In this document: piece by piece, positions 7,691 through 62,096 of the stretch
Layout: every line of letters starts with the position of its first letter
Numbering within the stretch: position 1 is the stretch's first letter
From: Candidatus Nealsonbacteria bacterium
Lineage (GTDB): Bacteria > Patescibacteriota > Minisyncoccia > Minisyncoccales > UBA6532
DNA length: 64,000 nt
Assembly: GCA_016186485.1 (NCBI GenBank)
Contig: JACPLN010000005.1
Span: 105,256 to 169,255, forward strand
Reading direction: 5' to 3'
Translations under genes and position numbers: made by a program
The notes under the pieces: generated by a model
The model's database searches: none
The model's input: the letters and a program-made list of their open reading frames with translations, nothing else
What the model was told of the DNA's origin: nothing

Positions 7691-7723
7691 AAGGCTTAAA
7701 CTCGTTCTAGCCTTTTTATTTTT
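7691..7723 (+). terminator. Intrinsic terminator after thyX
   Basis: AAGGCT (7691-7696) pairs with AGCCTT (7709-7714), followed by TTTTTATTTTT. Confidence 0.55.
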
Positions 7724-7755
7724 CGGCTGTTGACAGAAATACTATTATGTTTAAA
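7711..7755 (+). repeat. 45-bp perfect direct repeat, left copy (right copy at 8667..8711)
   Basis: CCTTTTTATTTTTCGGCTGTTGACAGAAATACTATTATGTTTAAA is identical at both sites, offset 956 bp. Confidence 0.95.
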
Positions 7756-7757
7756 AT
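7730..7757 (+). promoter_or_regulatory. Sigma70-like promoter for the tandem-repeat protein gene
   Basis: TTGACA (7730-7735), 16 nt, TAAAAT (7752-7757). The last 2 nt of the -10 lie outside the 45-bp repeat. Confidence 0.6.
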
Positions 7758-7862: not shown

Positions 7863-8633
7863 ATGTTGGGTAAAGTGAATGTAGACCAACTCTGCGAACT
7901 CTTCAGTCAGATAGCTGGAGGGAAAGTTACATCTGAAGCTATACAGGAATTGATTGACAAAGCGCCAAAGCTGGCGTTGCAACAGACTCTTGGGATAGTC
8001 TTGCGCCAGGCTCGTAAGACTGTAAAAGAAATCAACGACCCTCATTTACGAGCCAAAACTCTAGCAGCCATTGCCGGAGTAAGCCATGATGTCCATGACC
8101 TTGACGCAGCCAGAGAAAGCCATGATGTCCATGACCTTGACGCAGCCAGAAAACTAGTACCAGAAATCAGCCATCCTTATTCGCGAGCCGAAGTTCTAGC
8201 AGCCATTGCCGGAGTAAGCCATGATGTCCATGACCTTGACGCAACCAGAGAATCATTAGCAAAAATCACTGATCCTTACCAGCTAGCCAAAACTCTAGCA
8301 GCCATTGCCGGAGTAAGCCATGATGTCCATGACCTTGACGCAGCCAGAAAACTAGTACCAGAAATCAGCCATCCTTATTCGCGAGCCGGAGTTCTAGCAG
8401 CCATTGCCGGAGTAAGCCATGATGTTCATGACCTTGACGCAGCCAGAAAACTAGTACCAGAAATCAGCCATCCTTATTTACGAGCCAAAACTCTAGCAGC
8501 CATTGCCGGAGTAAGCCATGATGTCCATGACCTTGACGCAGCCAGAGAATCATTAGCAAAAATCACTGATCCTTACCAGCTAGCCGGAGTTCTAGCAGCC
8601 ATTGCCGGAGCATTAGCTGAAGCGCTGAAGTAA
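7863..8633 (+). CDS. Tandem-repeat protein with 33-aa helical-looking repeats (LAAIAGVSHDVHDLDAAR...); function unknown
   Basis: AGGAGG sits 8 nt upstream of the ATG. The ORF is made of near-identical 99-bp units. Own promoter and terminator. Confidence 0.75.
   Translation: MLGKVNVDQLCELFSQIAGGKVTSEAIQELIDKAPKLALQQTLGIVLRQARKTVKEINDPHLRAKTLAAIAGVSHDVHDLDAARESHDVHDLDAARKLVPEISHPYSRAEVLAAIAGVSHDVHDLDATRESLAKITDPYQLAKTLAAIAGVSHDVHDLDAARKLVPEISHPYSRAGVLAAIAGVSHDVHDLDAARKLVPEISHPYLRAKTLAAIAGVSHDVHDLDAARESLAKITDPYQLAGVLAAIAGALAEALK
8028..8630 (+). repeat. In-frame 99-bp tandem repeat array (about 5.5 units plus one internal 36-bp duplication)
   Basis: CTAGCAGCCATTGCCGGAGTAAGCCATGATGT recurs at 8061, 8196, 8295, 8394, 8493 and 8592. 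The first interval is 135 bp because of an extra 36-bp copy. Confidence 0.95.
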
Positions 8634-8651: not shown

Positions 8652-8679
8652 AGGGGCCACAAAGCCCCTTTTTATTTTT
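8652..8679 (+). terminator. Intrinsic terminator after the repeat-protein gene
   Basis: AGGGGC (8652-8657) pairs with GCCCCT (8664-8669), followed by a T-run. Confidence 0.6.
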
Positions 8680-8711
8680 CGGCTGTTGACAGAAATACTA
8701 TTATGTTTAAA
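8667..8711 (+). repeat. 45-bp perfect direct repeat, right copy
   Basis: Identical to 7711..7755. It ends 1 nt before the stop codon of the convergent gene 8713..9750. Confidence 0.95.
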
Positions 8712-8712
8712 G

Positions 8713-9750
8713 CTAGCGGCGCGGTTTCCTTTGGCGGGCAACCGCTCTTAGTTCTTTTAAGCAAGCCTCTGGGCTGAAAAATACCTTGCGAGCAGGGTAA
8801 ACAGTCCAGGGGCTGTATTTTTTATCCGGCCAGATTAAATAAACGATTTTGCCGTTGGAATTTGCGTAGTTGATTTCCGTTATCATTCCCGAGCTTGAGG
8901 CGACAATAGGGAAGTAGGCCACGACAAAATCGGATTGGTTGATTAATCTATAATCCCTTTTTATTATAACTTCAGCTCCCAGCGATTTTAGTTTTTGGGG
9001 GAAATGTTCAAACTTTTCCACCTTGTAGGGATCAAAGACGATCGCGATTTCATCAAGCTTTTTTATAAATTTCTCCGTTCTTTTTTTGATGTGGTCTGCG
9101 GCAAAGGTAATGGGAAAGCTGAAATATATTTTCAATCGGTTGTCAAAGATTAAACGGAAAAGAGTGTCCGGCGACTGTTCTTTCGGCAAAAGATAATATT
9201 CTTTTTTGTGTATCTGGGAAAAAAGCTCCGTGACAAACGACTCAAAATCGCGCCAGCGTATAACTCCCTCCAAATCCAGCGCCCTCCCCATGTTTTCCGC
9301 CACCTTGTCTATCCTCTCTTTTATAAATTCCAAGCCGTCAGTAATCTGGACGAAAAACAGAGGTTTTAATTTCTCAAAAAACGAGTTTAATATGTTGGCC
9401 GAGACAACTTCTTCCGGGCTTTCTTTCCACCAGTAAGTAAGATGGATGTTTATTATATTTATAGCGTCTTTTTTCAGCCTTTCCCTTAAAATATTATCAA
9501 GAGCGTCTTGGTGCCAGGCATTTCTGGTGCTTTTCGGGAAATTCAAAATATTATACCTTGTTATTTCGGCAGTCGTTTCTTTTGCCGCTTCCAGCACCTC
9601 GTCGGTTACGCTTATAACATTAACTTTTCTGCCTTTTTTAGCGCAGAATTCCGCAAAATCCTTGTAATACTCTTTTTCTCCGCAGCCGGCAATGCCGGAA
9701 GATACTATGTTGACCATATACTTTATTGTATCATTTTTTTGTGTTATCAT
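8713..9750 (-). CDS. Two-domain hypothetical protein: N-terminal kinase-like region plus C-terminal nucleoside 2-deoxyribosyltransferase-like domain
   Basis: The C-terminal pattern SDFVVAYFPIVASSSGMITEINYANSNGKIVYLIW resembles the Nuc_deoxyrib_tr superfamily. The N-terminal GIAGCGEK is only P-loop-like. The start could instead be M12 (9717). Confidence 0.45.
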   Translation of the reverse strand: MITQKNDTIKYMVNIVSSGIAGCGEKEYYKDFAEFCAKKGRKVNVISVTDEVLEAAKETTAEITRYNILNFPKSTRNAWHQDALDNILRERLKKDAINIINIHLTYWWKESPEEVVSANILNSFFEKLKPLFFVQITDGLEFIKERIDKVAENMGRALDLEGVIRWRDFESFVTELFSQIHKKEYYLLPKEQSPDTLFRLIFDNRLKIYFSFPITFAADHIKKRTEKFIKKLDEIAIVFDPYKVEKFEHFPQKLKSLGAEVIIKRDYRLINQSDFVVAYFPIVASSSGMITEINYANSNGKIVYLIWPDKKYSPWTVYPARKVFFSPEACLKELRAVARQRKPRR

Positions 9751-10675: not shown

Positions 10676-10703
10676 TTGACAGAATTATCTTAAATGATAT
10701 AAT
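10676..10703 (+). promoter_or_regulatory. Sigma70-like promoter with extended -10
   Basis: TTGACA (10676-10681), 16 nt, TGA-TATAAT (10698-10703). Confidence 0.65.
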
Positions 10704-10720
10704 GCACCCGGTGAATAAAC

Positions 10721-10945
10721 GTGGAATACGAAGGTCGTTTCTGGAAAAACAGCTTTAGGCGGGTAGAAAAAACGGGTCCCTTCCCCTTTACCGTAGAGGC
10801 AGGATCTGCTGAAGAGGCAAAGAAGGAGGCGCAAAGAAAGTTGTTGCAAATAGACAGCCAGTCTCGTCGTCGGGCAACAACAGACTGTGAAATCTTTATA
10901 GACGGTCATTGGGCATCGATCTATAATCTGATCGCTCACAGTTAA
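10721..10945 (+). CDS. Small hypothetical protein (74 aa, GTG start)
   Basis: Consensus promoter upstream, GGTGA 6 nt before the GTG, and a terminator directly downstream. No family recognised. Confidence 0.45.
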   Translation: MEYEGRFWKNSFRRVEKTGPFPFTVEAGSAEEAKKEAQRKLLQIDSQSRRRATTDCEIFIDGHWASIYNLIAHS

Positions 10946-10950
10946 CAACA

Positions 10951-10972
10951 AGGGCATATGCCCCTTTTTTAT
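10951..10972 (+). terminator. Intrinsic terminator
   Basis: GGGCATATGCCC palindrome followed by a T-run. Confidence 0.6.
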
Positions 10973-11017
10973 TTCAGGGCGCTTGACTAGCGCCTGTTTT
11001 TTTGCAAATATTTACGT

Positions 11018-12150: not shown

Positions 12151-13623
12151 ATGATAAACTTTCTGCCGGTTATAGGTTTGGAGGTGCACGCTGAGCTGAA
12201 AACAAAAAGCAAGATGTTTTGTTCTTGCCATAATGATCCCTTGGAAAGGCACCCCAATACAAATATTTGCCCGATTTGCATGGGGCACCCGGGCACTCTG
12301 CCGGTTATTAATAAAGAAGCGGTGAGAAAAGTGATTAAAACGGGGCTGGCTTTAAATTGCCAAATTTCGGAACATTCTAAATTCGACAGAAAAAATTACT
12401 TTTATCCCGACCTCCCTAAAGGATATCAGATATCGCAGTATGACAAACCCCTGTGCCTGGGAGGTTTTTTAATTATTGATGGCAAGGAAATACGCATTAG
12501 GAGAATTCACCTTGAAGAAGACACTGGAAGGCTAATTCACCCTGAAGGGGCGGATTACAGCTTGGTTGATTTTAACAGAGCCGGAGTTCCTTTGATGGAA
12601 CTGGTGACCGAGCCCGATATTGATTCAGCAAAAGAAGCCAGAAGTTTCGCCCAAGAGCTCCAGCTTATTTTTAGATATCTTGGGGTTTCTGACGCTGATA
12701 TGGAAAAGGGAGAAATGAGGGTGGAGGCAAACGTGAGTTTGCTTCAACTTAAACCCAAAACCCAAAACCCAAAACCCAAAACTCTGGGTACTAAAGTAGA
12801 GGTTAAAAATCTGAACTCTTTCCGAGCAGTAGAGAAGGCAATAGAGTATGAGGTTATCAGGCAAAAAGGAATTCTTGGCAAGGGTAAGAAAGTCATTCAA
12901 GAGACTATGGGATGGGATGACGTTAGCGAAGTTACTTTCAGCCAGAGAATAAAAGAAGAAGCCCATGATTACAGGTATTTTCCCGAGCCCGATTTGCCGC
13001 CCTTGCGCATAACAAAAGAGGAGGTTTTGAGAATAAGGGCAGGCGTTCCCGAGCTTCCCCAAAACCGCAGAACAAGGCTTATTAAAGAATACAAATTAGA
13101 GCCAAAAGCGGCCGAGGTTTTCGTAACCAACAAAGACCTCGGTGAGTATTTTGAGAAGACGGTAAGCGAGTTTGATCCGCATCTTTCTAAAGAAAAACTC
13201 CAATCTTTAATAAAGCTGGCAACAAACTATATCGTTACAGACCTTCAGGGTTTGCTAAAGGGGGCTTTGGTGGCGGGCGAAGATTTTTTAATAACGCCGG
13301 AAAATTTCGCCGAGTTTATAAGTTTAATTTACGAAGGCAAAATTACGAGCAAAATTGCCAAGATTGTGCTGGAAGAAATGTTCAAGGCAGGAGCCGATCC
13401 CTCCCATATTATTGAAGAAAAAGGATTGGTTCAGATGACCGACGAGAAAGAAATCGAAGAAATAATAAAAGAGGTAATTTCTCAAAATCAAAAAGCGGTG
13501 GAAGATTACAAAAAAGGCAAAGAAAACGCCCTCCAGTTTTTATTAGGACAGGTAATGGCTAAAACTCAAGGCAAGGTCAATCCCGAGACCGCCCGCAAAC
13601 TTCTCTTGACAAAGCTAAAGTAA
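12151..13623 (+). CDS. gatB: Asp/Glu-tRNA amidotransferase subunit B
   Basis: GLEVHAELKT, CPICMGHPGTLP, GTKVEVKNLNSFR, and the C-terminal YqeY-like tail KGKENALQFLLGQVMAKTQGKVNP. Confidence 0.95.
   Translation: MINFLPVIGLEVHAELKTKSKMFCSCHNDPLERHPNTNICPICMGHPGTLPVINKEAVRKVIKTGLALNCQISEHSKFDRKNYFYPDLPKGYQISQYDKPLCLGGFLIIDGKEIRIRRIHLEEDTGRLIHPEGADYSLVDFNRAGVPLMELVTEPDIDSAKEARSFAQELQLIFRYLGVSDADMEKGEMRVEANVSLLQLKPKTQNPKPKTLGTKVEVKNLNSFRAVEKAIEYEVIRQKGILGKGKKVIQETMGWDDVSEVTFSQRIKEEAHDYRYFPEPDLPPLRITKEEVLRIRAGVPELPQNRRTRLIKEYKLEPKAAEVFVTNKDLGEYFEKTVSEFDPHLSKEKLQSLIKLATNYIVTDLQGLLKGALVAGEDFLITPENFAEFISLIYEGKITSKIAKIVLEEMFKAGADPSHIIEEKGLVQMTDEKEIEEIIKEVISQNQKAVEDYKKGKENALQFLLGQVMAKTQGKVNPETARKLLLTKLK
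12751..12785 (+). repeat. Heptanucleotide tandem array (AAACCCA x4 plus AAACTCT) inside gatB
   Basis: Read directly. It encodes LKPKTQNPKPKTL in a loop between the conserved ANVS and GTKVE blocks. Confidence 0.9.
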
Positions 13624-13656
13624 GTCGAACAGCCCCATAATTTTTTTAAAAAGTAC

Positions 13657-13685
13657 TTGACAGGGGTGTTAGCTATTGTATATAC
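13657..13685 (+). promoter_or_regulatory. Sigma70-like promoter for the toxin-antitoxin pair
   Basis: TTGACA (13657-13662), then 16-17 nt, then TATATA/ATATAC. ATG at 13695. Confidence 0.5.
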
Positions 13686-13694
13686 TTTAGATAT

Positions 13695-13973
13695 ATGGCG
13701 AAGACGATGATAAATATTAGGGCAGACCAGGATATAAAGAGCAAGGCACAGAGAGTTGCTCACGACCTTGGCATGCCTCTTTCTACGATTATTAATGCTT
13801 ATCTCAGACAGCTTATTCGCACCAAGGAGATTCACTTTTCTACTGAAGGAGAATTAAAGCCGGCAGTCAAAAAAAGACTGGATCGTATTCACGAAGAGGT
13901 CAGGGAAGGGAAGAATCTTTCCCCGGTATTTCATAATGCTAAGGCAATGGATTCTTATCTAGATTCTCTATAG
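13695..13973 (+). CDS. Type II antitoxin, RelB/DinJ family (ribbon-helix-helix)
   Basis: The N-terminus INIRADQDIKSKAQRVAHDLGMPLSTIINAYLRQL is DinJ-like. The toxin gene starts 3 nt downstream. Confidence 0.75.
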   Translation: MAKTMINIRADQDIKSKAQRVAHDLGMPLSTIINAYLRQLIRTKEIHFSTEGELKPAVKKRLDRIHEEVREGKNLSPVFHNAKAMDSYLDSL

Positions 13974-13975
13974 AA

Positions 13976-14236
13976 ATGAAGATACAGCTGCATAGAAATT
14001 TTGAGAAGAAATTTGTTAAACTTCCTCTCAAAATAAAGGAGAGGTTCAAAGAACGTAGAGGTCTCTTTCTAGAAGACGCTTTTAATCCGTTGCTTAATAA
14101 TCATCCTTTAAGCGGCGACCGTTTGGGGCAATGGAGTGTTAATATCACAGGCGACTGGCGCGCTATTTATGTGTTTAGAGACGAGAATACTATTGTTTTC
14201 ATTGATATAGACACGCACAGTAATTTATATAAATAA
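13976..14236 (+). CDS. Type II toxin, RelE/YafQ (ParE/RelE superfamily)
   Basis: NNHPLSGDRLGQWSVNITGDWRAIYVF....IDTHSNLY pattern. 86 aa, paired with the antitoxin. Confidence 0.75.
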   Translation: MKIQLHRNFEKKFVKLPLKIKERFKERRGLFLEDAFNPLLNNHPLSGDRLGQWSVNITGDWRAIYVFRDENTIVFIDIDTHSNLYK

Positions 14237-14240
14237 TAAT

Positions 14241-14351
14241 CAAGGCAAAGAAAACGCTTTGCAATTTCTTGTAGGCCAAGCAATGGCAAAATCTAGGGGC
14301 CGCGCCAACCCAGATAAAGTCAGGCAAACTCTATTGACAGAATTAAGATAG
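14241..14351 (+). pseudogene. Displaced relic of a gatB 3' end (36 codons plus stop)
   Basis: Translates to QGKENALQFLVGQAMAKSRGRANPDKVRQTLLTELR*, versus KGKENALQFLLGQVMAKTQGKVNPETARKLLLTKLK* at the live gatB end (22 of 36 identical by my count). No upstream coding continuation. Confidence 0.85.
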
Positions 14352-14362
14352 GGTGCTATAAT
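14334..14362 (+). promoter_or_regulatory. Perfect-consensus sigma70 promoter embedded in the gatB relic
   Basis: TTGACA (14334-14339), 17 nt, TATAAT (14357-14362). Confidence 0.75.
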
Positions 14363-14368
14363 TGGCTT

Positions 14369-14703
14369 AGCTCATAATGGCTGGACGATGAACACCGAGG
14401 GACGCTGGAGAACCTTAGCGTCTAGCAGGAGGGAAAGCTCCGGTCCCTTTGATGGAAGCACAGTCTTCTCTTGGGCCTAGATAGCAAGAGTTATCTTCTT
14501 GGGTGCTATGCAATAATGTCAGCCGGCTAAAAGGCTGGCTGGAAAGGGCGCAATACCCAACAATCACTAGCTTCTAGTGCAACTCTCGTAAGTTAAGTCT
14601 TACTTATGTTGCATACTAGCGAAGGCAAGAGGATGGCAGATGCGCTGTCTAGATATAATTAAAAGGGCCTAGTAGACTAAAAGTCCAACGGCCCCGTTTT
14701 TTT
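14369..14703 (+). ncRNA. Candidate structured non-coding RNA (~335 nt), family not identified
   Basis: Consensus promoter upstream. Terminator GGGCC (14665-14669) / GGCCC (14690-14694) followed by T7. No ORF above ~30 codons. Visibly higher GC than the flanks. Several hairpins: 14401-06/14417-22, 14499-504/14555-60, 14565-70/14574-79, 14578-83/14608-13 with inner 14588-92/14599-603. Confidence 0.6.
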
Positions 14704-14732
14704 ATTTTCAGAATGCGTGGTAATATTTTATA

Positions 14733-15437
14733 ATGGCCTCCTCAAAAATTTTCATTATAAGCCTGGGCGGATCTATTGTGGCCCCAAAGAGCGGGGAGGT
14801 TAATATTTCTTTCCTCAAAAAATTCAAAAAGCTTGTTTTAGGGTTTGTAAACAAAGGACACAGTTTTGTTATTGTGGTTGGAGGAGGGAAATTAGCCAGG
14901 GTTTACCAGGAAGAAATTTCCAACATCTTAAAACCCTCTTTTGAAGATAAAGATTGGTTGGGTATTTTAACTACCAGACTTAATGCTCAGTTTGTAAAGA
15001 TAATTTTTGGCGATAAAGCCCATTCTTTTATTGTCACCAATCCAACTTTACCGATAAAAACCGTAAAGCCAATCATTATATCAGCCGGCTGGAAGCCCGG
15101 CTGGTCCACGGATTATATCGCCGTGCTTTTAGCTAAAAAGTTCGGGGCAAAAGAGATAATTAATGCCAGCAATATTCCATTTGTTTATTCTGAAGACCCA
15201 AAATTAGCAAAGGTCAACGGCAGGAAACCGAAAGCTATCCCGAAGCTTTTTTGGAAAGAATACAGAAAACTAATAGGGGGAAAATGGATTCCGGGATTGG
15301 GAGTCCCGATTGATCCCATAGCCGCCAAAGAAGCTCAAAAACAGGGAATAAAAGCAATTATTGTTCTTGGAACCGATTTAAAGAACCTGAAAAATTTGCT
15401 ATCGGGTAAAAATTTCCGCGGCACTACCATTGCTTGA
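14733..15437 (+). CDS. pyrH: Amino-acid-kinase-fold UMP kinase, archaeal-type (putative)
   Basis: FIISLGGSIVAP and VIVVGGGKLAR motifs, 234 aa. Confidence 0.65.
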   Translation: MASSKIFIISLGGSIVAPKSGEVNISFLKKFKKLVLGFVNKGHSFVIVVGGGKLARVYQEEISNILKPSFEDKDWLGILTTRLNAQFVKIIFGDKAHSFIVTNPTLPIKTVKPIIISAGWKPGWSTDYIAVLLAKKFGAKEIINASNIPFVYSEDPKLAKVNGRKPKAIPKLFWKEYRKLIGGKWIPGLGVPIDPIAAKEAQKQGIKAIIVLGTDLKNLKNLLSGKNFRGTTIA

Positions 15438-16626: not shown

Positions 16627-17004
16627 ATGGTAAAGGTGAGAAGTACTTTCAGTATAAGTTATAAGAACTTCTTAGATCAAGGAACAGAATGGACTGTTGA
16701 TTGGAACTGGTGGGGGGAATGGAGAGGGTTTTCCCGCAAGTTCGGAACTTTAAATAGGGATAGTTGGGAAGAGGCTCCTTTCATTGGCGACATGGCTTAC
16801 GAAGCGATTCTCAAAAAATTTGGCCTAGAAGAATGGCCGGAGGAATTTCCCAGAGATTCTATAGTAAAGATGAGCCCGGCCGAATTAATAGCAAAGAGAA
16901 GAGAAAAAGAGCAAAGTTTTCCTGAACTGTCCAGACTCATGGCGGTAAGCGATTTCGCAACGCCAGACAAAGAAGCGGAACTGGCAGAAAATTACGCGCC
17001 GTGA
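16627..17004 (+). CDS. Hypothetical protein (125 aa, Trp-rich N-terminus)
   Basis: ORF with terminators downstream. No recognisable family. Confidence 0.4.
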   Translation: MVKVRSTFSISYKNFLDQGTEWTVDWNWWGEWRGFSRKFGTLNRDSWEEAPFIGDMAYEAILKKFGLEEWPEEFPRDSIVKMSPAELIAKRREKEQSFPELSRLMAVSDFATPDKEAELAENYAP

Positions 17005-17148
17005 ATATATTGGCATCAGGCGATCGCGGGCCGGCAGAAGAATATACATAGGGCATCAAGCCCTTTTTTATTTTTGGGCCTATTGCTTCCTCCGAGGAAG
17101 CAACGAGCCCGTTTTGGTTGAGTTGTGGTAGAATGGAAGAAAAGTTGT

Positions 17149-18800: not shown

Positions 18801-20585
18801 ATGGAAAATATCAGGAATTTTGTTATTATCGCCCATATTGATCACGGGAAGTCAACGCTGGCTGACCGGCTTTTGGAAATAACTGGTACAATTCCTAAAG
18901 AAAAAATGAAACCGCAGTATTTGGATATGATGGATTTGGAAAGAGAGAGGGGAATTACAATAAAAATGCAGCCGGTTCGCATGAACTACAATCTACATTC
19001 TACTTTCTACATTCTAAACTTGATTGATACCCCGGGTCACGTTGATTTTGCTTATGAGGTTTCAAGGTCTCTGGCTGCGGTTGAAGGAGCAATTCTTTTG
19101 GTTGACGCAACCCAAGGGGTTCAGGCGCAGACCCTGGCTAATTTGGAGCTGGCCAGGAAGCAAAATTTGGTTATTATACCCGTTGTGAACAAGATAGATT
19201 CTCCGCAGGCGAACACAGAGGAAGCGGCAATAGAGCTTTCCAAGGTTTTAGGAATAAAGAAGGAAGAAATTATAATGATTTCGGCAAGGCTCGGCACCAA
19301 TGTAGATAAAGTTCTCCTTTCTGTCATTGAAAAGGTCCCGCCTCCAAAAATTAATTTAGAGAAACCATTAAGAGCTCTGGTTTTTGATTCAGATTACGAT
19401 ACTTATAAAGGAATTCTGGCTTATGTGAGAATAATTGACGGCGAAATCAAAATGGGAGAGCAAATTCATTTAATGGCTGCAAACATATCCAGTCAGATAA
19501 AAGAAATTGGATACTTTGCTCCGGAGTTAAAGCCGGCTGATTCGTTAAAGTCTGGCGAGATAGGATATATAGCAACAGGGATAAAGGAGCCCGGCAAAGT
19601 AATGGTAGGGGATACCATCACAATTCCCAATTTCAACATTGGACCCTTGGCGGGTTATAAAGAGCCAAAGCCCGTTGTTTTTGCCAGCGTTTACCCCCAG
19701 AATCCGGACGATTTTGATTTATTGAAGATTGCTTTGGAGAAATTGAAGCTTAGCGATTACGCCCTGACTTTTGAGCAGGAACTTAAAGCAATAATCGGCA
19801 GAGGGTTCCGCTGCGGATTTTTAGGCTCTTTGCACGCGGAAATAGCGACAGAAAGATTAAAAAGGGAGTTTGGTTTGGAGGTTATAATTTCCAAACCCTC
19901 TGTTGTTTATAAAATAATTGATATTAAAGACAAGGAGCATTTTATATATTCCCCGGCCGACTGGATCAGCTACTCTTTGATCAAGGAAATCAAAGAGCCA
20001 TGGGTAAGGATAGAGGTTATTGCTCCAAGCAGGTTTTTAGGCCCAGCCTTAAATGTTTTGGAAAGCGTGTCCGGGCGCCAGGTTGGCATCGTAAACATCA
20101 GCCAAGACAAGCTTTTGGTGACATACGAATTGCCCCTAAGGGAACTGATAGTGGGATTTTACGACAATCTTAAGGGAGCCACCCAAGGGTATGCTTCAAT
20201 GAACTACGAAATTTTAGATTATAGGCAGGGGGATTTGGCAAAGCTTGAGGTTTTGGTTGCCGGCCAGAAAGAGGAAGCTTTTTCCGAGATTGTTCCCAAA
20301 GAAAAAGCTTACCAAGAGGGCAGCAGGATTGTTAAGAAGCTGAAAGATATTTTGCCTCCCCAGCTTTTTTCTGTTGCTTTGCAGGCGGTTTTCCAGGGCA
20401 AAATAATCGCCAGGGAAACAATGAGGGCAAAAGGCAGAGATGTTATCGCTCCTCTTTACGGGGGAGATTACACAAGAAAAAAGAAGCTTCTGGAAAAACA
20501 GAAAAAAGGAAAGAAAGAGTTAAAAGAAAAGGGAAAGGTTAGGATTCCGCCCAAAGTATTTTTGGAGATATTCAAGAGCCATTGA
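18801..20585 (+). CDS. lepA: Translation elongation factor 4 (LepA)
   Basis: IRNFVIIAHIDHGKSTLADR, DTPGHVDF, NKID, and the LepA C-terminal domain with a Lys-rich tail. Confidence 0.95.
   Translation: MENIRNFVIIAHIDHGKSTLADRLLEITGTIPKEKMKPQYLDMMDLERERGITIKMQPVRMNYNLHSTFYILNLIDTPGHVDFAYEVSRSLAAVEGAILLVDATQGVQAQTLANLELARKQNLVIIPVVNKIDSPQANTEEAAIELSKVLGIKKEEIIMISARLGTNVDKVLLSVIEKVPPPKINLEKPLRALVFDSDYDTYKGILAYVRIIDGEIKMGEQIHLMAANISSQIKEIGYFAPELKPADSLKSGEIGYIATGIKEPGKVMVGDTITIPNFNIGPLAGYKEPKPVVFASVYPQNPDDFDLLKIALEKLKLSDYALTFEQELKAIIGRGFRCGFLGSLHAEIATERLKREFGLEVIISKPSVVYKIIDIKDKEHFIYSPADWISYSLIKEIKEPWVRIEVIAPSRFLGPALNVLESVSGRQVGIVNISQDKLLVTYELPLRELIVGFYDNLKGATQGYASMNYEILDYRQGDLAKLEVLVAGQKEEAFSEIVPKEKAYQEGSRIVKKLKDILPPQLFSVALQAVFQGKIIARETMRAKGRDVIAPLYGGDYTRKKKLLEKQKKGKKELKEKGKVRIPPKVFLEIFKSH
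18984..19018 (+). repeat. Degenerate heptanucleotide array (AACTACA ATCTACA TTCTACT TTCTACA TTCTAAA) inside lepA
   Basis: Read directly. It encodes NYNLHSTFYILN just upstream of the DTPGH motif. Confidence 0.7.
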
Positions 20586-20610
20586 CAGGGTTAAAGATAT
20601 AACCTATAAT
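20582..20610 (+). promoter_or_regulatory. Consensus sigma70 promoter
   Basis: TTGACA (20582-20587), 17 nt, TATAAT (20605-20610). Confidence 0.7.
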
Positions 20611-20631
20611 ATATTCGGTTCGTCAAAATTG

Positions 20632-21110: not shown

Positions 21111-21139
21111 TTGACAGATATAAGAATACATGATATTAT
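21111..21139 (+). promoter_or_regulatory. Sigma70 promoter with extended -10
   Basis: TTGACA (21111-21116), 17 nt, TGA-TATTAT (21134-21139). Confidence 0.65.
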
Positions 21140-21160
21140 ATATTCGGTTCGTCAAAATTG

Positions 21161-35815: not shown

Positions 35816-36784
35816 ATGAATTTTCAATTTTCAATTTCTAATTTCCAAAAAAATGTTCCGTTAAACAATCATACTACGTTTAAAATCGGGGGGCCGGCGA
35901 AATATTTTTTTGCCGCCAAAACAAAAGAAGATATAATTCAGGCGATAAATTGGGCAAAGAAAAACGATCTGCCGTTTTTTATTTTGGGAGGCGGCAGCAA
36001 TATGGTGGTTTCAGACAAAGGCTTCAACGGCCTTGTTATAAAAATACAAACCACAAACTATAAACTGCAAGCTGCAAGATTGCATGCCGAGGCCGGTGTT
36101 CTAATAGAAACGCTGGTAAGGGAAACCGGTAAGTTAGGGTTGTCCGGTTTTGAATGGGCCGGGGGATTGCCAGGGACTTTAGGAGGGGCAATAAGAGGGA
36201 ACGCCGGAGCCTTTGGAGGAGAAATCAAAGACAATATAATTGAAGTTGAGGCGCTGGATAATAAGGGAAGAATTAGAAAATTTTCTAAAAAACAATGCCG
36301 GTTTTCTTACAGGGATTCTATTTTCAAAGATAAAAACTGGATTATTCTTTCGGCAATTTTTGTATTTAAAAATGGGGATGGGGAAAAAATTAAAGAAGCG
36401 GCAAGGGAACACATTAATTACCGCAAAGAAAGACACCCTCTTGAATACCCAAGCGCCGGCAGCGTTTTTAAAAACTGCGATTTAAAAGATGTGCCAATAA
36501 ATATCAGAAATTTTTTTAAGGATGTTGTGAAAACAGATCCTTTCCCTGTTGTGCCAGCAGCCGCCATTATAGCCAGAGCCGGTTTAAAGGGATTAAGGGC
36601 TGGGGGGGCCGAAGTTTCGGAAAAACACCCCAACTATATTGTTAATAAAGACAATGCGAGAGCGGTTGATGTGCTGAAACTTATAAAAATGGTTAAGAAA
36701 AAGGTTAAAGAAAATTTTGGGATAAAGCTAGAGGAAGAGATACAGTTGTTGGGTTTTTCTTCAAATAATTTATTGACAAAATAA
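35816..36784 (+). CDS. murB: UDP-N-acetylenolpyruvoylglucosamine reductase
   Basis: FAD-binding TTFKIGGPAKYFF, GGGSNMVV, and C-terminal SAGSVFKN. I prefer ATG 35816. Confidence 0.9.
   Translation: MNFQFSISNFQKNVPLNNHTTFKIGGPAKYFFAAKTKEDIIQAINWAKKNDLPFFILGGGSNMVVSDKGFNGLVIKIQTTNYKLQAARLHAEAGVLIETLVRETGKLGLSGFEWAGGLPGTLGGAIRGNAGAFGGEIKDNIIEVEALDNKGRIRKFSKKQCRFSYRDSIFKDKNWIILSAIFVFKNGDGEKIKEAAREHINYRKERHPLEYPSAGSVFKNCDLKDVPINIRNFFKDVVKTDPFPVVPAAAIIARAGLKGLRAGGAEVSEKHPNYIVNKDNARAVDVLKLIKMVKKKVKENFGIKLEEEIQLLGFSSNNLLTK
35821..35848 (+). repeat. Heptanucleotide array (TTTTCAA x2, TTTCTAA, TTTCCAA) forming codons 2-11 of murB
   Basis: Read directly. It encodes NFQFSISNFQ. Confidence 0.85.
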
Positions 36785-36801
36785 TCGCTTCATGCTAGCA
36801 T
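36773..36801 (+). promoter_or_regulatory. Sigma70-like promoter of paralog A; overlaps the last codons and stop of murB
   Basis: TTGACA (36773-36778), 17 nt, TAGCAT (36796-36801). Homologous to the promoter at 38040. Confidence 0.6.
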
Positions 36802-36817
36802 CTTACTAGGTGAAAAA

Positions 36818-38039: not shown

Positions 38040-38068
38040 TTGACAAAGTAATCGCCTTATTCTAATAT
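38040..38068 (+). promoter_or_regulatory. Sigma70-like promoter of paralog B
   Basis: TTGACA (38040-38045), 17 nt, TAATAT (38063-38068). The leader TAGTAGGTGAAAAATTGAACCTT is nearly identical to copy A. Confidence 0.65.
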
Positions 38069-38084
38069 CTTAGTAGGTGAAAAA

Positions 38085-40834: not shown

Positions 40835-43261
40835 ATGTCGCTGCTGGCTAAAATTTTTGGGGATGCCAATGAGAAATATTTGGAAGGTTTGCAGCCATTG
40901 GTTGAGAAAATAAACCAGCTCGAATCCCAATTCGAGTCTTTTTCTGCCGGACAGCTGAAAGAAAAAACAAAAGAGCTCAAAGAGAAATTGGGCGAAGGCG
41001 GAACTTTAACTGACGAGATATTGCCCCCAGCTTTTGCTTTAGTCAGGGAGGCAGCAAAAAGAACTCTTAACCAGCGCCACTTTGACGTCCAGCTAATCGG
41101 AGGAATCGCATTGCATCAGGGTAAAATTGCCGAAATGAAAACCGGCGAAGGAAAAACGCTTACCGCTACCCTCCCTGTTTATTTTAATGCTCTGCAAGGG
41201 CGTGGAGTGCACGTGATAACGGTAAATGATTATCTTGCAAAAAGGGATACGGTATGGATGGGGCAGATATACGATTTTTTGGGGCTGTCGGTGGGGTGCA
41301 TAGTTCATGAGGCGGCATACCTATATGATCAAAATTACCAGCCAAATAATAAAGATAGAGAGAGAGATTTGCTTGGCGGGTTTAAGGTTGTTGAAAGTTA
41401 CTTGAGACCAGTTTCAAGAAAGGAAGCCTATGGCGCAGATATAACCTATGGGACCAATAACGAATTCGGGTTTGATTACTTGAGAGACAATATGGTTTAC
41501 ACCCAAGACCAAATGGTCCAGCGAGGTTTTGATTATGCCATTATTGACGAAGTAGACTCAATTTTAATTGACGAGGCCAGAACTCCTTTGATTATTTCTG
41601 CTCCGGATACAGAATCTTCAAAAATGTATGAAGAATTTGCCAGGATTATTCCTCGGCTTTCAAAAGATATTGATTACGAAATAGATGAAAAAAGAAAATC
41701 CGCCACACTAACAGAGGCCGGGATTAATAAAGTTGAAAAGATCTTGGGAATGAAGGATATTTATCAAGAAAAGGGGATAAGATACCTTCATCATTTAGAG
41801 CAAGCTTTGAGGGCAGAAGTTTTCTTTAAAAAAGACCGAGATTATATTGTTAAAGACGGGGAGGTTATAATAGTTGATGAGTTTACCGGCAGATTGATGG
41901 CGGGGCGCAGGTGGTCTGGCGGCCTTCACCAGGCAGTAGAAGCAAAAGAAGGATTGAGAATACAGCCAGAATCAATAACTCTAGCTTCCATAACCTTTCA
42001 AAACCTATTTCGCATGTACAGCAAATTGGCCGGAATGACCGGGACTGCGGCAACCTCAGGAGAAGAGTTTTCAAAAGTTTATGGGTTGGATGTTGTTGTC
42101 GTCCCGACCGAAAAACAGATGATAAGGCAAGATTTGCCGGATAAGATATATAAGACGAGAGACGGAAAGTTTGTGGCGGCAGCGAGAGAAATTAAAGAAC
42201 GCCACAAAAAAGGCCAACCATTGCTGGTAGGCACTGTTTCTATTGAAAAAAATGAGTACCTAGGAAAGCTTTTGGACAGAGAAGGTGTTCCCCATAATAT
42301 CCTTAATGCAAAAAATCACGAAAAAGAAGGTGAAATTATCGCTCAAGCCGGGAGGCTGGGAGCCGTAACAATTGCTACGAATATGGCAGGCCGCGGCGTT
42401 GATATTATCCTAGCTGGCAATCCCCAGGATCCAGAGGAGGCTAGAAAGGTTCGGGAAACAGGCGGGCTTCATGTTATCGGCACTGAACGCCATGAAGCAA
42501 GGCGTATTGACAACCAGTTGCGGGGAAGGTCTGGCAGGCAGGGGGATCCGGGCTCATCGCAGTTTTTTGTTTCTTTGGAAGATGATTTAATGAGGATTTT
42601 TGGGGGAGAGAAGATTAAAAGATTAATGGAAATGCTGAAGATTCCGGAAGATGAGCCCATTGAAGCAAAATTAATTTCTGGGGTTATAGAGGGCGCTCAA
42701 GCAAAAATTGAAGGAATGAATTTTGATTTAAGAAAGCATCTTTTGGATTTTGACGATGTTTTAAACAAGCATAGAGAAGTGATATACAAAAAAAGGAGAG
42801 AGACGTTAGATAAATCTCAAATATTATTGATTGTCAAAAAGGCGGGATATTCGGAAAGCGATTATGAAAAAAAAGAAAAAGAAGTAGGAGAGGAAAACAT
42901 GAGAAAACTTGAAAAATTCATTCCGCTTAGGGTGATTGACGCTCTTTGGGTTGAACACTTGGAAAATATGGAGCAGTTGAGAGATTCTGTAAGGCTGAGG
43001 GGTTATGGTCAGCAGGATCCTTTGATAGAATACAAGAATGAGGGCCATAGGCTTTTTCAGGGCCTATTGAAAACGCTGGAGCTGTCAATCGCAAACACAA
43101 TAATGAAAGTCGGCGAGGCAAAGGAAGCGTCATATCAATCCCCACCTCCGGTAAAAATTCAGGGCAGCTCGGCCAAAGTTAGCCGTAACGATCCCTGTCC
43201 ATGCGGAGCGAAAAAACCAGACGGTCGCCCAATAAAGTATAAACATTGCCATGGAAAATAA
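40835..43261 (+). CDS. secA: Preprotein translocase ATPase SecA
   Basis: DEAD motor motifs ([38 protein letters not shown]) and C-terminal zinc motif [21 protein letters not shown]. Confidence 0.95.
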
Positions 43262-55517: not shown

Positions 55518-56198
55518 TTGCTCTTCAAAAAAAGGTACGTATATCCTAAGGGCTACAAAGTAAGGAGTATTACGGAGCAGACCAACATCTTGCGTCAGTT
55601 ATTCCCCGGAATAGGCTACGCTGATGAGAGAATAGTCAAAGGACCTTTGCCGGAGGGAGCCGAAGGATGGTTCGCCATTCCGAGGTGGGAGAATATCGCG
55701 TCCTCGTACAATGAGGCGGTGGAAAAGATGCTGGAGCTGATTAGGCAACAGCGTAAGGGCAGGTTCTGCAACTATCGCGCGGGCCGTCTCGGACCATATT
55801 ACCTGAAACAAACCGAGAAGGCAACGATGATGTTCCATAAGATAGAACAAGAGCAGAAGGGATACGACATTCTTGTAGTTCCGGCGCAGTTCGGTCTCCG
55901 TCACAGGAATCTTTTCGTAGAGCAGGCTCGCGCAGTCATGAACGCTGGCGAGTTCGGTTTCGGCGCCTTCGCTGTCGGCATCATGCTATTGATCCATCCC
56001 GAGCGGGAAGTCCAGTGGGAACAGCTCCACGTCCAATGCGCTGGCGACGACTTTAGTAATTTAATCCATGGCGAGTGGTCGCGCGCGCCGCTCTTCGACT
56101 TCAACGACGACGAGATCAAGTTCGGCGCCGGCTGGTTCCTCAGTACCTACGCGCACTACGGTTCCGCGTCGGGGTTTGTCTCGCCCTCCTCCGTATAA
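55518..56198 (+). CDS. Unassigned protein family, paralog C (about 226 aa from TTG 55518)
   Basis: Same family as 36818.. and 38085... The ORF-track start 55455 lies upstream of the promoter and inside the recJ-like gene, so TTG 55518 is preferred. Confidence 0.75.
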   Translation: MLFKKRYVYPKGYKVRSITEQTNILRQLFPGIGYADERIVKGPLPEGAEGWFAIPRWENIASSYNEAVEKMLELIRQQRKGRFCNYRAGRLGPYYLKQTEKATMMFHKIEQEQKGYDILVVPAQFGLRHRNLFVEQARAVMNAGEFGFGAFAVGIMLLIHPEREVQWEQLHVQCAGDDFSNLIHGEWSRAPLFDFNDDEIKFGAGWFLSTYAHYGSASGFVSPSSV

Positions 56199-56308
56199 AA
56201 ACTACGGACGGGCAGGTAGTAGCCATTCAAATAATTGTCCGCCATAGGCGGATCCGCCTCTGGCGGAAACTCTCGGGTTTTTTAATCCTTGAGTTCTTTT
56301 TTATTTTT
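56199..56308 (+). other. Conserved 3' module, copy C
   Basis: Palindrome CCGCCATAGGCGGATCCGCCTCTGGCGG (56239..56266), then the same terminator hairpin and T-run. Confidence 0.85.
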
Positions 56309-56426
56309 CCAAAACTTGATTGAAATCGGTTTGATTGAGGCTCGGCCTCAATTATATTAAAAACTTAGAAAAATTTAGAAACTGTATGATTGACTACTTT
56401 GTTGGGCACTGATGCACTAATTTTTG

Positions 56427-61202: not shown

Positions 61203-61643
61203 ATGGAGAAAATTATTGTTTATACAGACGGCGGATCTCGAGGAAACCCGGGCCCTGCCGGAATCGGGGTAGTTATTGAAAATAACAAGGAAGAAGTAAT
61301 AAAAGAATATTCAGCTTGCTTAGGAGAGGCTACCAATAATGAAGCTGAATACCAAGCGCTCATTTTTGCTTTAAAAAAAGTTAAAGCTCTTTTTGGAAAA
61401 GAAAAGATTAAAAAAACGGAAATGGAAATAAGATCGGATTCCGAACTTTTAGTAAGCCAGCTTAATGGGAAATATAAAGTTTTAGATAAAGATATCCAGC
61501 CTTTATTTTTGCAGGCTTGGAATCTTAAAACAGATTTTGGCAAAATCAAATTTACCGCGCTTCCCAGAGAAGAAAACAAAGAAGCCGACCGTCTTGTTAA
61601 TCAGGCGCTAGACGAACAACAAAAATCCCAAAAATTATTCTAA
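61203..61643 (+). CDS. rnhA: Ribonuclease HI family protein
   Basis: IVYTDGGSRGNPGPAGIG, TNNEAEYQALIFAL, SDSELLV, and NKEADRLVN. Confidence 0.85.
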   Translation: MEKIIVYTDGGSRGNPGPAGIGVVIENNKEEVIKEYSACLGEATNNEAEYQALIFALKKVKALFGKEKIKKTEMEIRSDSELLVSQLNGKYKVLDKDIQPLFLQAWNLKTDFGKIKFTALPREENKEADRLVNQALDEQQKSQKLF

Positions 61644-61672: not shown

Positions 61673-61680
61673 TTTCTTAT

Positions 61681-62059
61681 CTCAGCGGGCTCATAGGCCG
61701 AATTTTGTTTAAATGGTCATCTATCTGGATCCGACTTTGCAGTCGGATTCTAGCGAGCTACTTTTATTCTTCGATAAATCCGGAGATTATCGAAGACTTT
61801 GCTCTTGCATCCGGGTAAGGATTTAGCCGTTTCACCTAGGCATTTCTGCCGAGTTCGCCCTCCTTTGCATAAAAGCTTCGGAGGGCGATTTTATCCTTTC
61901 GGACAAAATCGTCTCTGTTCGCACCTCTCCCGCCAGCAACTGCGTAGCTGTAGGCGGGGACGGGCGTTACCCGCTACCTTTGTCCTGACTTAACGTCTGG
62001 ACTGGATGTTCGGATCTTCCTCCCCGACTATAGTCGGAGCGACCATCCGGCCCACCAAG
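61681..62059 (-). ncRNA. rnpB: RNase P RNA, bacterial type A
   Basis: The minus strand reads the following elements. P1: CUUGGUGGGC / GCCCGCUGAG, 10 bp. P2: AUGGUC / GACCAU. P3 hairpin: CCGACUAUAGUCGG. P4 strands: GGAGGAAGAUCCGAAC and ACAAAAUUCGGCCUAU, where CCGAA:UUCGG covaries with E. coli CCGGG:CCCGG. Also present: GGUAACGCC, ACAGAGA, GGUGAAA and AGAUAGAUGAC. Confidence 0.9.
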
Positions 62060-62067
62060 ACAATTAT

Positions 62068-62096
62068 ATTATAAGGCTTGAATACCAATTTGTCAA
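62068..62096 (-). promoter_or_regulatory. Perfect-consensus promoter for rnpB
   Basis: The minus strand reads TTGACA (62096-62091), 17 nt, TATAAT (62073-62068). The P1 5' end lies ~8 nt downstream. Confidence 0.75.

Follow-up and report, generated by a model that had tools for sequence, protein, structure and literature searches.

Stand-alone small RNA (sRNA) genes in the size class of CsrB, RNAIII and 6S RNA have their own consensus promoter and a rho-independent terminator, and contain no ORF. Their G+C content and folding exceed the genome background, and they locate in intergenic or variable regions. The raiA motif, ROOL, GOLLD, OLE and HEARO RNAs are long multi-helix junctions found in accessory or variable settings, where the neighbouring genes do not reveal the function. 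In attenuation leaders and riboswitches, a structured RNA with a terminator lies just 5' of a gene.

Here, a candidate RNA of about 335 nt was analysed in a metagenome-assembled genome of Candidatus Nealsonbacteria (Patescibacteria/CPR). The whole stretch of DNA examined, referred to as the window, is 64 kb. The candidate RNA shares with the stand-alone sRNA genes all of the features named above, but it has no homologues and no identifiable partner protein or target. Unlike in CsrB-class sRNAs, GGA-type motifs are not enriched (about 8 counted by eye versus about 7 expected). It resembles the raiA motif, ROOL, GOLLD, OLE and HEARO in its long multi-helix junction and its setting, but none of their Rfam models matches it, and ROOL, GOLLD and OLE are larger. 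Those RNAs were defined through covariation over many genomes, whereas the candidate RNA is a single sequence. It has the layout of an attenuation leader, but no antiterminator was found, a separate promoter plausibly serves the gene that follows and the element is not conserved at pyrH. Judged by its promoter, terminator and non-coding character, it would belong to the generic promoter-bounded, rho-independent sRNA genes. In our estimate the balance is even on whether it is an independently transcribed, lineage-specific, structured non-coding sRNA gene outside the described families.

Promoter, terminator and the slot downstream of gatB

In the window, gatB (12151-13623) is followed by relB (13695-13973) and a YafQ/ParE-type toxin gene (13976-14236). 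A gap of 496 nt, which contains the candidate RNA, separates the toxin gene from an amino-acid-kinase gene of the UMP-kinase (pyrH) type (14733-15437), which has an AA_kinase domain and the database name UMP kinase and shows 100% identity to a UMP kinase of a Candidatus Nealsonbacteria genome. Also within the gap, on the + strand (14241-14351), is a relic copy of the end of gatB, consisting of 36 codons plus TAG (QGKENALQFLVGQAMAKSRGRANPDKVRQTLLTELR*). In the DNA alignment the relic is about 78% identical to 13514-13640, and by tblastn it shares 61% amino acid identity with GatB residues 455-490 (E=1e-13). Thus, two gatB 3' ends, the live one (13513-13623) and the relic, flank the RelB/YafQ toxin-antitoxin cassette, which therefore appears to have brought a replacement gatB end and displaced the original end downstream. 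The bracketing of the cassette resembles integration or replacement at the gatB end, with the new gene end supplied by the incoming DNA; no integrase was found near the cassette.

The promoter of the candidate RNA overlaps this relic. Its -35 box, TTGACA (14334-14339, + strand), lies within the Leu-Thr codons of the relic, and its extended -10 element, TG-c-TATAAT (14354-14362, + strand; TG at 14354-55, TATAAT at 14357-14362), begins 3 nt past the relic stop. The initial annotation had described a perfect promoter with a 17-nt spacer at 14334-14362, and this is confirmed by a score of 12/12, with the upstream TG in addition. According to the sigma-70 spacing rule, transcription is predicted to start at the A/G at 14369-14370 (+), 7-8 nt past the -10 box. 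Six promoters of the 12/12 grade exist in the window: four precede ORFs, one precedes the RNase P RNA and the last is that of the candidate RNA. The candidate RNA and the RNase P RNA thus have promoters of equal grade. The promoter scan found no promoter on the - strand of the candidate RNA stretch.

The live end of gatB likewise has TTGACA (13608), as do gatB ends of relatives, and out of 76 related gatB genes no fewer than 16 have a TTGACA-N-TAnnnT promoter spanning the stop codon. Since the -35 box sits in the relic and similar promoters cross the gatB stops of relatives, the promoter is, on sequence evidence, ancestral and real. Because it is part of the gatB end, it is also expected here whatever DNA lies downstream of it. 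In relatives, these promoters drive unrelated small genes, such as MraZ-like genes, several genes for Pfam-less proteins of 84-128 aa and genes for Cys-rich peptides, indicating a slot behind gatB whose cargo varies. The slot cargo here is the ORF-less 335-nt unit. The cargo of relatives is likewise enriched in G+C (0.41-0.48), so a raised G+C content at the slot is not peculiar to RNA genes. While the boundaries and features of the unit drawn in the initial annotation stand, the gatB relic under the promoter and the variable slot had been overlooked.

The arrangement TTGACA..TATAAT straddling the gatB stop was seen in many related loci (L087, 2985-3085; L093, L095, L097, L103, L105 and others). 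In these loci, a conserved leader hairpin (AGCACCUUUACAAA..AGGGUGC) and a gene for a Pfam-less protein of 84-105 aa often come after the promoter. The gatB ends thus appear to be promoter-bearing docking sites for variable small genes.

At the other end of the unit, the proposed hairpin with T7 was found as a strong, free-standing intrinsic terminator (14665-14703, + strand). It is formed by GGGCC (14665-69) and GGCCC (14690-94) with an inner GACU/AGUC helix and is followed by T7 (14697-14703); its pair probability is 0.95-0.98, and the hairpin alone has an energy of -12.1 kcal/mol. The consensus scanner skipped it because its loop limit is 8. The start region of the pyrH-type gene follows (14718-14735, +), with an extended -10 element TGgTAATAT (14718-26) that ends 6 nt before the ATG (14733), so that the predicted start falls on the A of the ATG. 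This spacing is compatible with leaderless initiation, and relB in the same genome has the same layout from -10 to start. The claim that the downstream gene has its own -10 box is thus plausibly right.

A -10 box 5-8 nt ahead of the start codon was seen at relB (13657-13697), at pyrH (14718-14735) and at several other genes, and an SD-like motif precedes only 7 of 53 genes. This suggests that leaderless or SD-independent initiation is widespread in the genome.

Some further transcription signals were noted elsewhere in the window. A second 12/12 promoter plus terminator unit (10676-11003) was considered as a parallel RNA case and rejected, as it encodes a 75-aa ORF. This GTG ORF (about 75 aa, 10721-10948) is followed by two tandem terminators, lies just 5' of an M24 peptidase gene and would be absent from ORF lists whose minimum length is set high. 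Near-identical promoter/leader regions were observed for two pairs of neighbour genes, 20582-20628 versus 21111-21157 (..atattcggttcgtcaaaaTTG) and 36773-36817 versus 38040-38084 (ttgacaaa.taatcgc..taggtgaaaaaTTG), which points to duplication of gene cassettes whose 5' regions are conserved.

Predicted fold and coding capacity

The folding ensemble resolves the candidate RNA into two domains and the terminator. The whole RNA on the + strand has a minimum free energy (MFE) of -117.6 kcal/mol (z = -3.99), and none of 100 dinucleotide shuffles folded as well. In contrast, the reverse strand reaches -97.7 kcal/mol (z = -1.28). The 5' domain (14369/14370-14476, +; about 107 nt, G+C 0.56) is closed by GCUCA/UGGGC and folds no better than chance (MFE -36.0 kcal/mol, z = -1.0). 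The 3' domain (14477-14652, +; 176 nt) is a multi-branch junction with an MFE of -66.9 kcal/mol and a z of -4.99. It is closed by helices of 9 bp (14477-85/14644-52, pair probability 0.99) and 12 bp (14490-501/14626-37, 0.93), and its junction carries one hairpin of 10 bp (14519-42, 0.96) and three short ones (14546-58, 14565-79 and 14588-603). By manual count of the predicted fold, the three best-supported helices hold seven G-U pairs, which fits the + strand-specific excess of folding.

In a scan of both strands with 726 windows, each 176 nt long, in which few shuffles were used and the z values are therefore coarse, the 3' domain ranked third by z, and a lower MFE was found only in an RNase P window. 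Twelve of the 726 windows had z < -4, indicating that the folding of the 3' domain is strong and not unique. All helices proposed in the initial annotation are present at the coordinates given there. CACUAG/CUAGUG and GUAAG/CUUAC are part of the minimum-energy fold, while GACGCU/AGCGUC, UUGGGU/ACCCAA and UGCAAC/GUUGCA are alternatives disfavoured in the ensemble. The description as a structured RNA is supported for the 3' domain and not for the 5' domain; since none of the relatives searched has the candidate RNA, it depends on single-sequence thermodynamics of the 3' domain.

In the same coarse scan, other 176-nt windows with z <= -4.9 were 56189-56364 (+), 16941-17116 (-), 42109-42284 (-) and 61293-61468 (-), the first of which overlaps the intergenic gap 56198-56424. 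At 7863-8633, a 256-aa ORF of tandem repeats (..LAAIAGVSHDVHDLDAAR..) was observed, which is rich in CTAG. A 43-nt promoter-bearing segment (tttttatttttcggctgTTGACAgaaatactattatgtttaaa) is present on both sides of this ORF (7714-7756 and 8669-8711). The region 3' of the second promoter copy (8669-8845, +) includes a 176-nt window with -65.5 kcal/mol and a z of about -4.2. This fold is antisense to the 3' end of the ORF at 8713-9750 and could be a small RNA or an antisense transcript.

The candidate RNA stretch had been described as more G+C-rich than its surroundings, and the measured values agree, with 0.49-0.50 over 14300-14599 versus 0.34-0.43 in the neighbouring genes. The candidate RNA itself has 0.46-0.56, compared with 0.42 for the whole window. 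It contains 7 CTAG in 346 nt versus 1.4 per kb genome-wide, and some of them are ends of CUAG/CUAG helices. CTAG is strongly avoided in the genome (92 observed versus 235 expected), so the high count is what non-coding sequence predicts.

The absence of any ORF longer than about 30 codons, as stated initially, is correct for the + strand, where the longest ORF encodes 30 aa (14388-14480). On the - strand it is not, as a GTG ORF of 50 aa (14415-14567), which has no promoter, had gone unmentioned. Six-frame peptides of the candidate RNA had no match among 5.8 billion proteins at E<=10, which makes it less likely that the stretch is a decayed gene or that wrongly called ORFs cover homologous loci. 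A decayed copy of the slot proteins of relatives was rejected, as no similarity to them was found. Together, the ORF lengths and the six-frame search reveal no convincing protein-coding capacity in this stretch.

Homologue searches and known RNA families

The nearest sequenced relatives are distant. Among 5.8 billion proteins, including SRA-wide assemblies, the closest proteins share 63% amino acid identity for pyrH and 75% for GatB. To look for homologues, nhmmer and single-sequence covariance models (CMs) of both domains were applied to about 160 loci (80 pyrH loci from GTDB genomes and 80 gatB loci from JGI metagenomes) and 8 assembly contigs, about 1.75 Mb in total. The candidate RNA was absent from the roughly 80 gatB and 80 pyrH relatives, gatB synteny in 3 assemblies gave no match either, and only the window matched itself; the CM of the 5' domain also returned only the self-match over these loci. 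Three of the 8 assembly contigs represent the source population and have the identical sequence. Besides the assembly of the window itself, three assemblies contain the region; their identity across 8.7 kb is 100%, and they therefore give no population signal. The candidate RNA had no blastn match in phage and plasmid collections. No match was obtained in IMG/VR with back-translated "protein" patterns and three DNA patterns, nor in the JGI metagenomes with one DNA pattern, a search in which the self-match was absent too. Self-search found no paralogue within the window.

The lack of a significant Rfam match, predicted by the unclassified status given to the RNA at the outset, was borne out by a gathering-threshold scan of the window with Rfam 15 and by scans at E<=10. 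In the window, the gathering scan matched only two tRNAs and the RNase P RNA, all away from the candidate RNA. At E<=10, where the region and each domain were scanned in pieces of 120-600 nt, no SRP RNA, tmRNA, 6S RNA, RNase P RNA, riboswitch, T-box, PyrR element or intron was returned; the matches obtained, among them sok, SNORA58, mir-745 and HOTTIP, were all of the chance kind.

The RNase P RNA had been placed elsewhere in the window, and Rfam locates it at 61678-62058 on the - strand, so RNase P RNA, a single-copy RNA, was rejected for the candidate site, where nothing matched. The RNase P RNA scores barely over the Rfam threshold (108.8 versus 100 bits), which shows how divergent the universal RNAs are in this lineage. 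Its gene (61678-62096, -) was observed to have a deviant P4 strand (GAGGAAGAUCCGA) and the 12/12 promoter at 62096. P4-like strings spotted by eye in the candidate RNA (GGGAAAGCUCCGG ... CCGGCU) had no CM support and were rejected as pattern-seeking.

The candidate RNA is comparable to tmRNA in length and in having a strong promoter. In agreement with the initial report that no tmRNA ends could be recognized, ARAGORN was negative for tmRNA at default and at 70% thresholds, and Rfam gave no match. tmRNA was rejected, as there is no tRNA-like domain (acceptor stem, T-arm) and no plausible tag frame. Only with thresholds lowered to 80% or less did ARAGORN report tRNAs here: two "tRNAs" within the RNA region, both with introns and implausible, and one without an intron at the scan edge.

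The SRP helix-8 look-alike GGUCC..GGAAGCA (14442-14460), located in the 5' domain, indeed lacks a GNRA loop and has a 7-nt CUUUGAU loop instead. By eye, it resembles SRP domain IV (helix 8) in its UCC/GGA helix flanked by CCGG and AGCA(C), as compared with CAGG-UCC-GGAA-GGA-AGCA of 4.5S RNA. The hairpin is absent from the MFE and ensemble folds and is off-centre, outside a long helix. SRP RNA was rejected, as there is no CM match at E<=10, no tetraloop and no ACCA asymmetric loop. 6S RNA, which is rod-shaped, about 180 nt long and opened by a central bubble, was rejected on the missing Rfam match and the two-domain fold with its multi-branch junction.

A tRNA with a divergent group I intron was considered and rejected, because a T-arm is missing and the -10 box would lie partly within the acceptor. 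Relaxed ARAGORN found no tRNA halves around the candidate RNA, RF00028 did not match, and a AGACUAAA-like string occurs only in the terminator loop. Divergent tRNA group I introns of Patescibacteria may escape RF00028 (PMC13011429), so the negative CM result alone is weak evidence against an intron.

Weighing the possible readings

A cis-regulatory leader, either attenuator or riboswitch, that governs the UMP-kinase-type gene through regulated termination would explain why a long, structured and G+C-rich stretch ends in a terminator 30 nt ahead of the pyrH ATG, a typical riboswitch layout. However, the terminator has no competing pairing; when its 3' arm was forced open in constrained folding, the upstream fold was unchanged. 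As no antiterminator alternative exists, the initial view that the candidate RNA is not simply the pyrH leader is upheld. The extended -10 of pyrH fits a leaderless start, the region upstream of pyrH is shorter than 150 nt in most of 80 relatives, none of which has the element (0/80), and Rfam gives no riboswitch, T-box or PyrR match. The leader is thus very unlikely. Marginally less probable again is an mRNA or dual-function RNA for a tiny protein, such as the 30-aa ORF at 14388-14480. The slot of relatives does hold small protein genes, and SD sequences are rare in this genome, so a missing SD is not disqualifying. But the ORF spans just 93 of about 335 nt, has no homologue among the 5.8 billion proteins and is neither hydrophobic nor otherwise distinctive, and its AUG, at a distance of 19 nt from the predicted transcript start, falls within predicted structure. 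The most improbable reading is a highly divergent universal RNA (SRP RNA, tmRNA or 6S RNA) unseen by the Rfam models. It would fit the size near that of tmRNA, the housekeeping-grade promoter, the 14442-60 motif that recalls the SRP helix 8 core and the narrow score of the RNase P RNA, which points to divergent RNAs in the lineage. Yet the SRP, tmRNA, 6S and RNase P models found nothing in pieces of 120-600 nt, not even with the cut-off relaxed to E<=10, ARAGORN at 70% thresholds detected no tmRNA and no T-arm/acceptor pairing is present. The SRP-like hairpin, with neither GNRA nor asymmetric loop, is disfavoured and outside a long helix, and the RNA folds into two domains instead of a rod. 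Some of the 160 loci should also contain an alignable or syntenic copy of a universal RNA, which is not so.

Because the slot is variable, the insert could also be decaying foreign DNA. The transcript would then be a functionless by-product of the ancestral gatB-end promoter firing into decayed or foreign cargo, and the terminator would merely insulate pyrH. This is improbable in our judgement, though well above the three readings just discussed. It is consistent with the unrelated small genes that fill the slot in different relatives, with the inheritance of the promoter from gatB, with the RNA being an orphan in all searches, with the lack of excess structure in the 5' domain and with the G+C enrichment (0.41-0.48) of the relatives' cargo. 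On the other side, the 3' domain shows strand-specific excess folding with a rank comparable to RNase P RNA, and no ORF remnant was detected in any frame. In a streamlined genome of about 40% G+C, one would moreover expect a decaying insert to disappear or to become richer in A+T.

The reading as a lineage-specific sRNA gene is a credible one. In this reading, transcription would start at about 14369 from the consensus extended -10 promoter inherited from the gatB end and would stop at the constitutive intrinsic terminator (14665-14703). The predicted product has a weakly structured, G+C-rich 5' domain and a stable 176-nt 3' domain, in which a 21-bp interrupted helix would close the multi-hairpin junction. 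The RNA would probably accumulate as a discrete species and may act in trans, binding proteins or serving as a scaffold, with its folded core formed by the 3' domain. It would be accessory cargo of the variable slot downstream of gatB rather than a universal housekeeping RNA. A bolder possibility, which we consider doubtful, is that it is the founding member of a new structured RNA class restricted to a rare Nealsonbacteria lineage and transcribed, in a streamlined genome, from a promoter of RNase P grade, with the 176-nt junction as the core of a ribonucleoprotein or of a self-assembling RNA that supplies a function otherwise missing from the reduced cells.

Regulatory and structural RNAs of the Patescibacteria (CPR) are almost unexplored, and a literature search on their non-coding RNAs found no survey. 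That 335 non-coding bases are kept behind one of the strongest promoters of a streamlined genome suggests a function. The gatB-end context, a promoter combined with an insertion or replacement site for small cargo genes, may generalise beyond the RNA itself. If the RNA is real, it would provide a handle on RNA-based regulation in the Patescibacteria.
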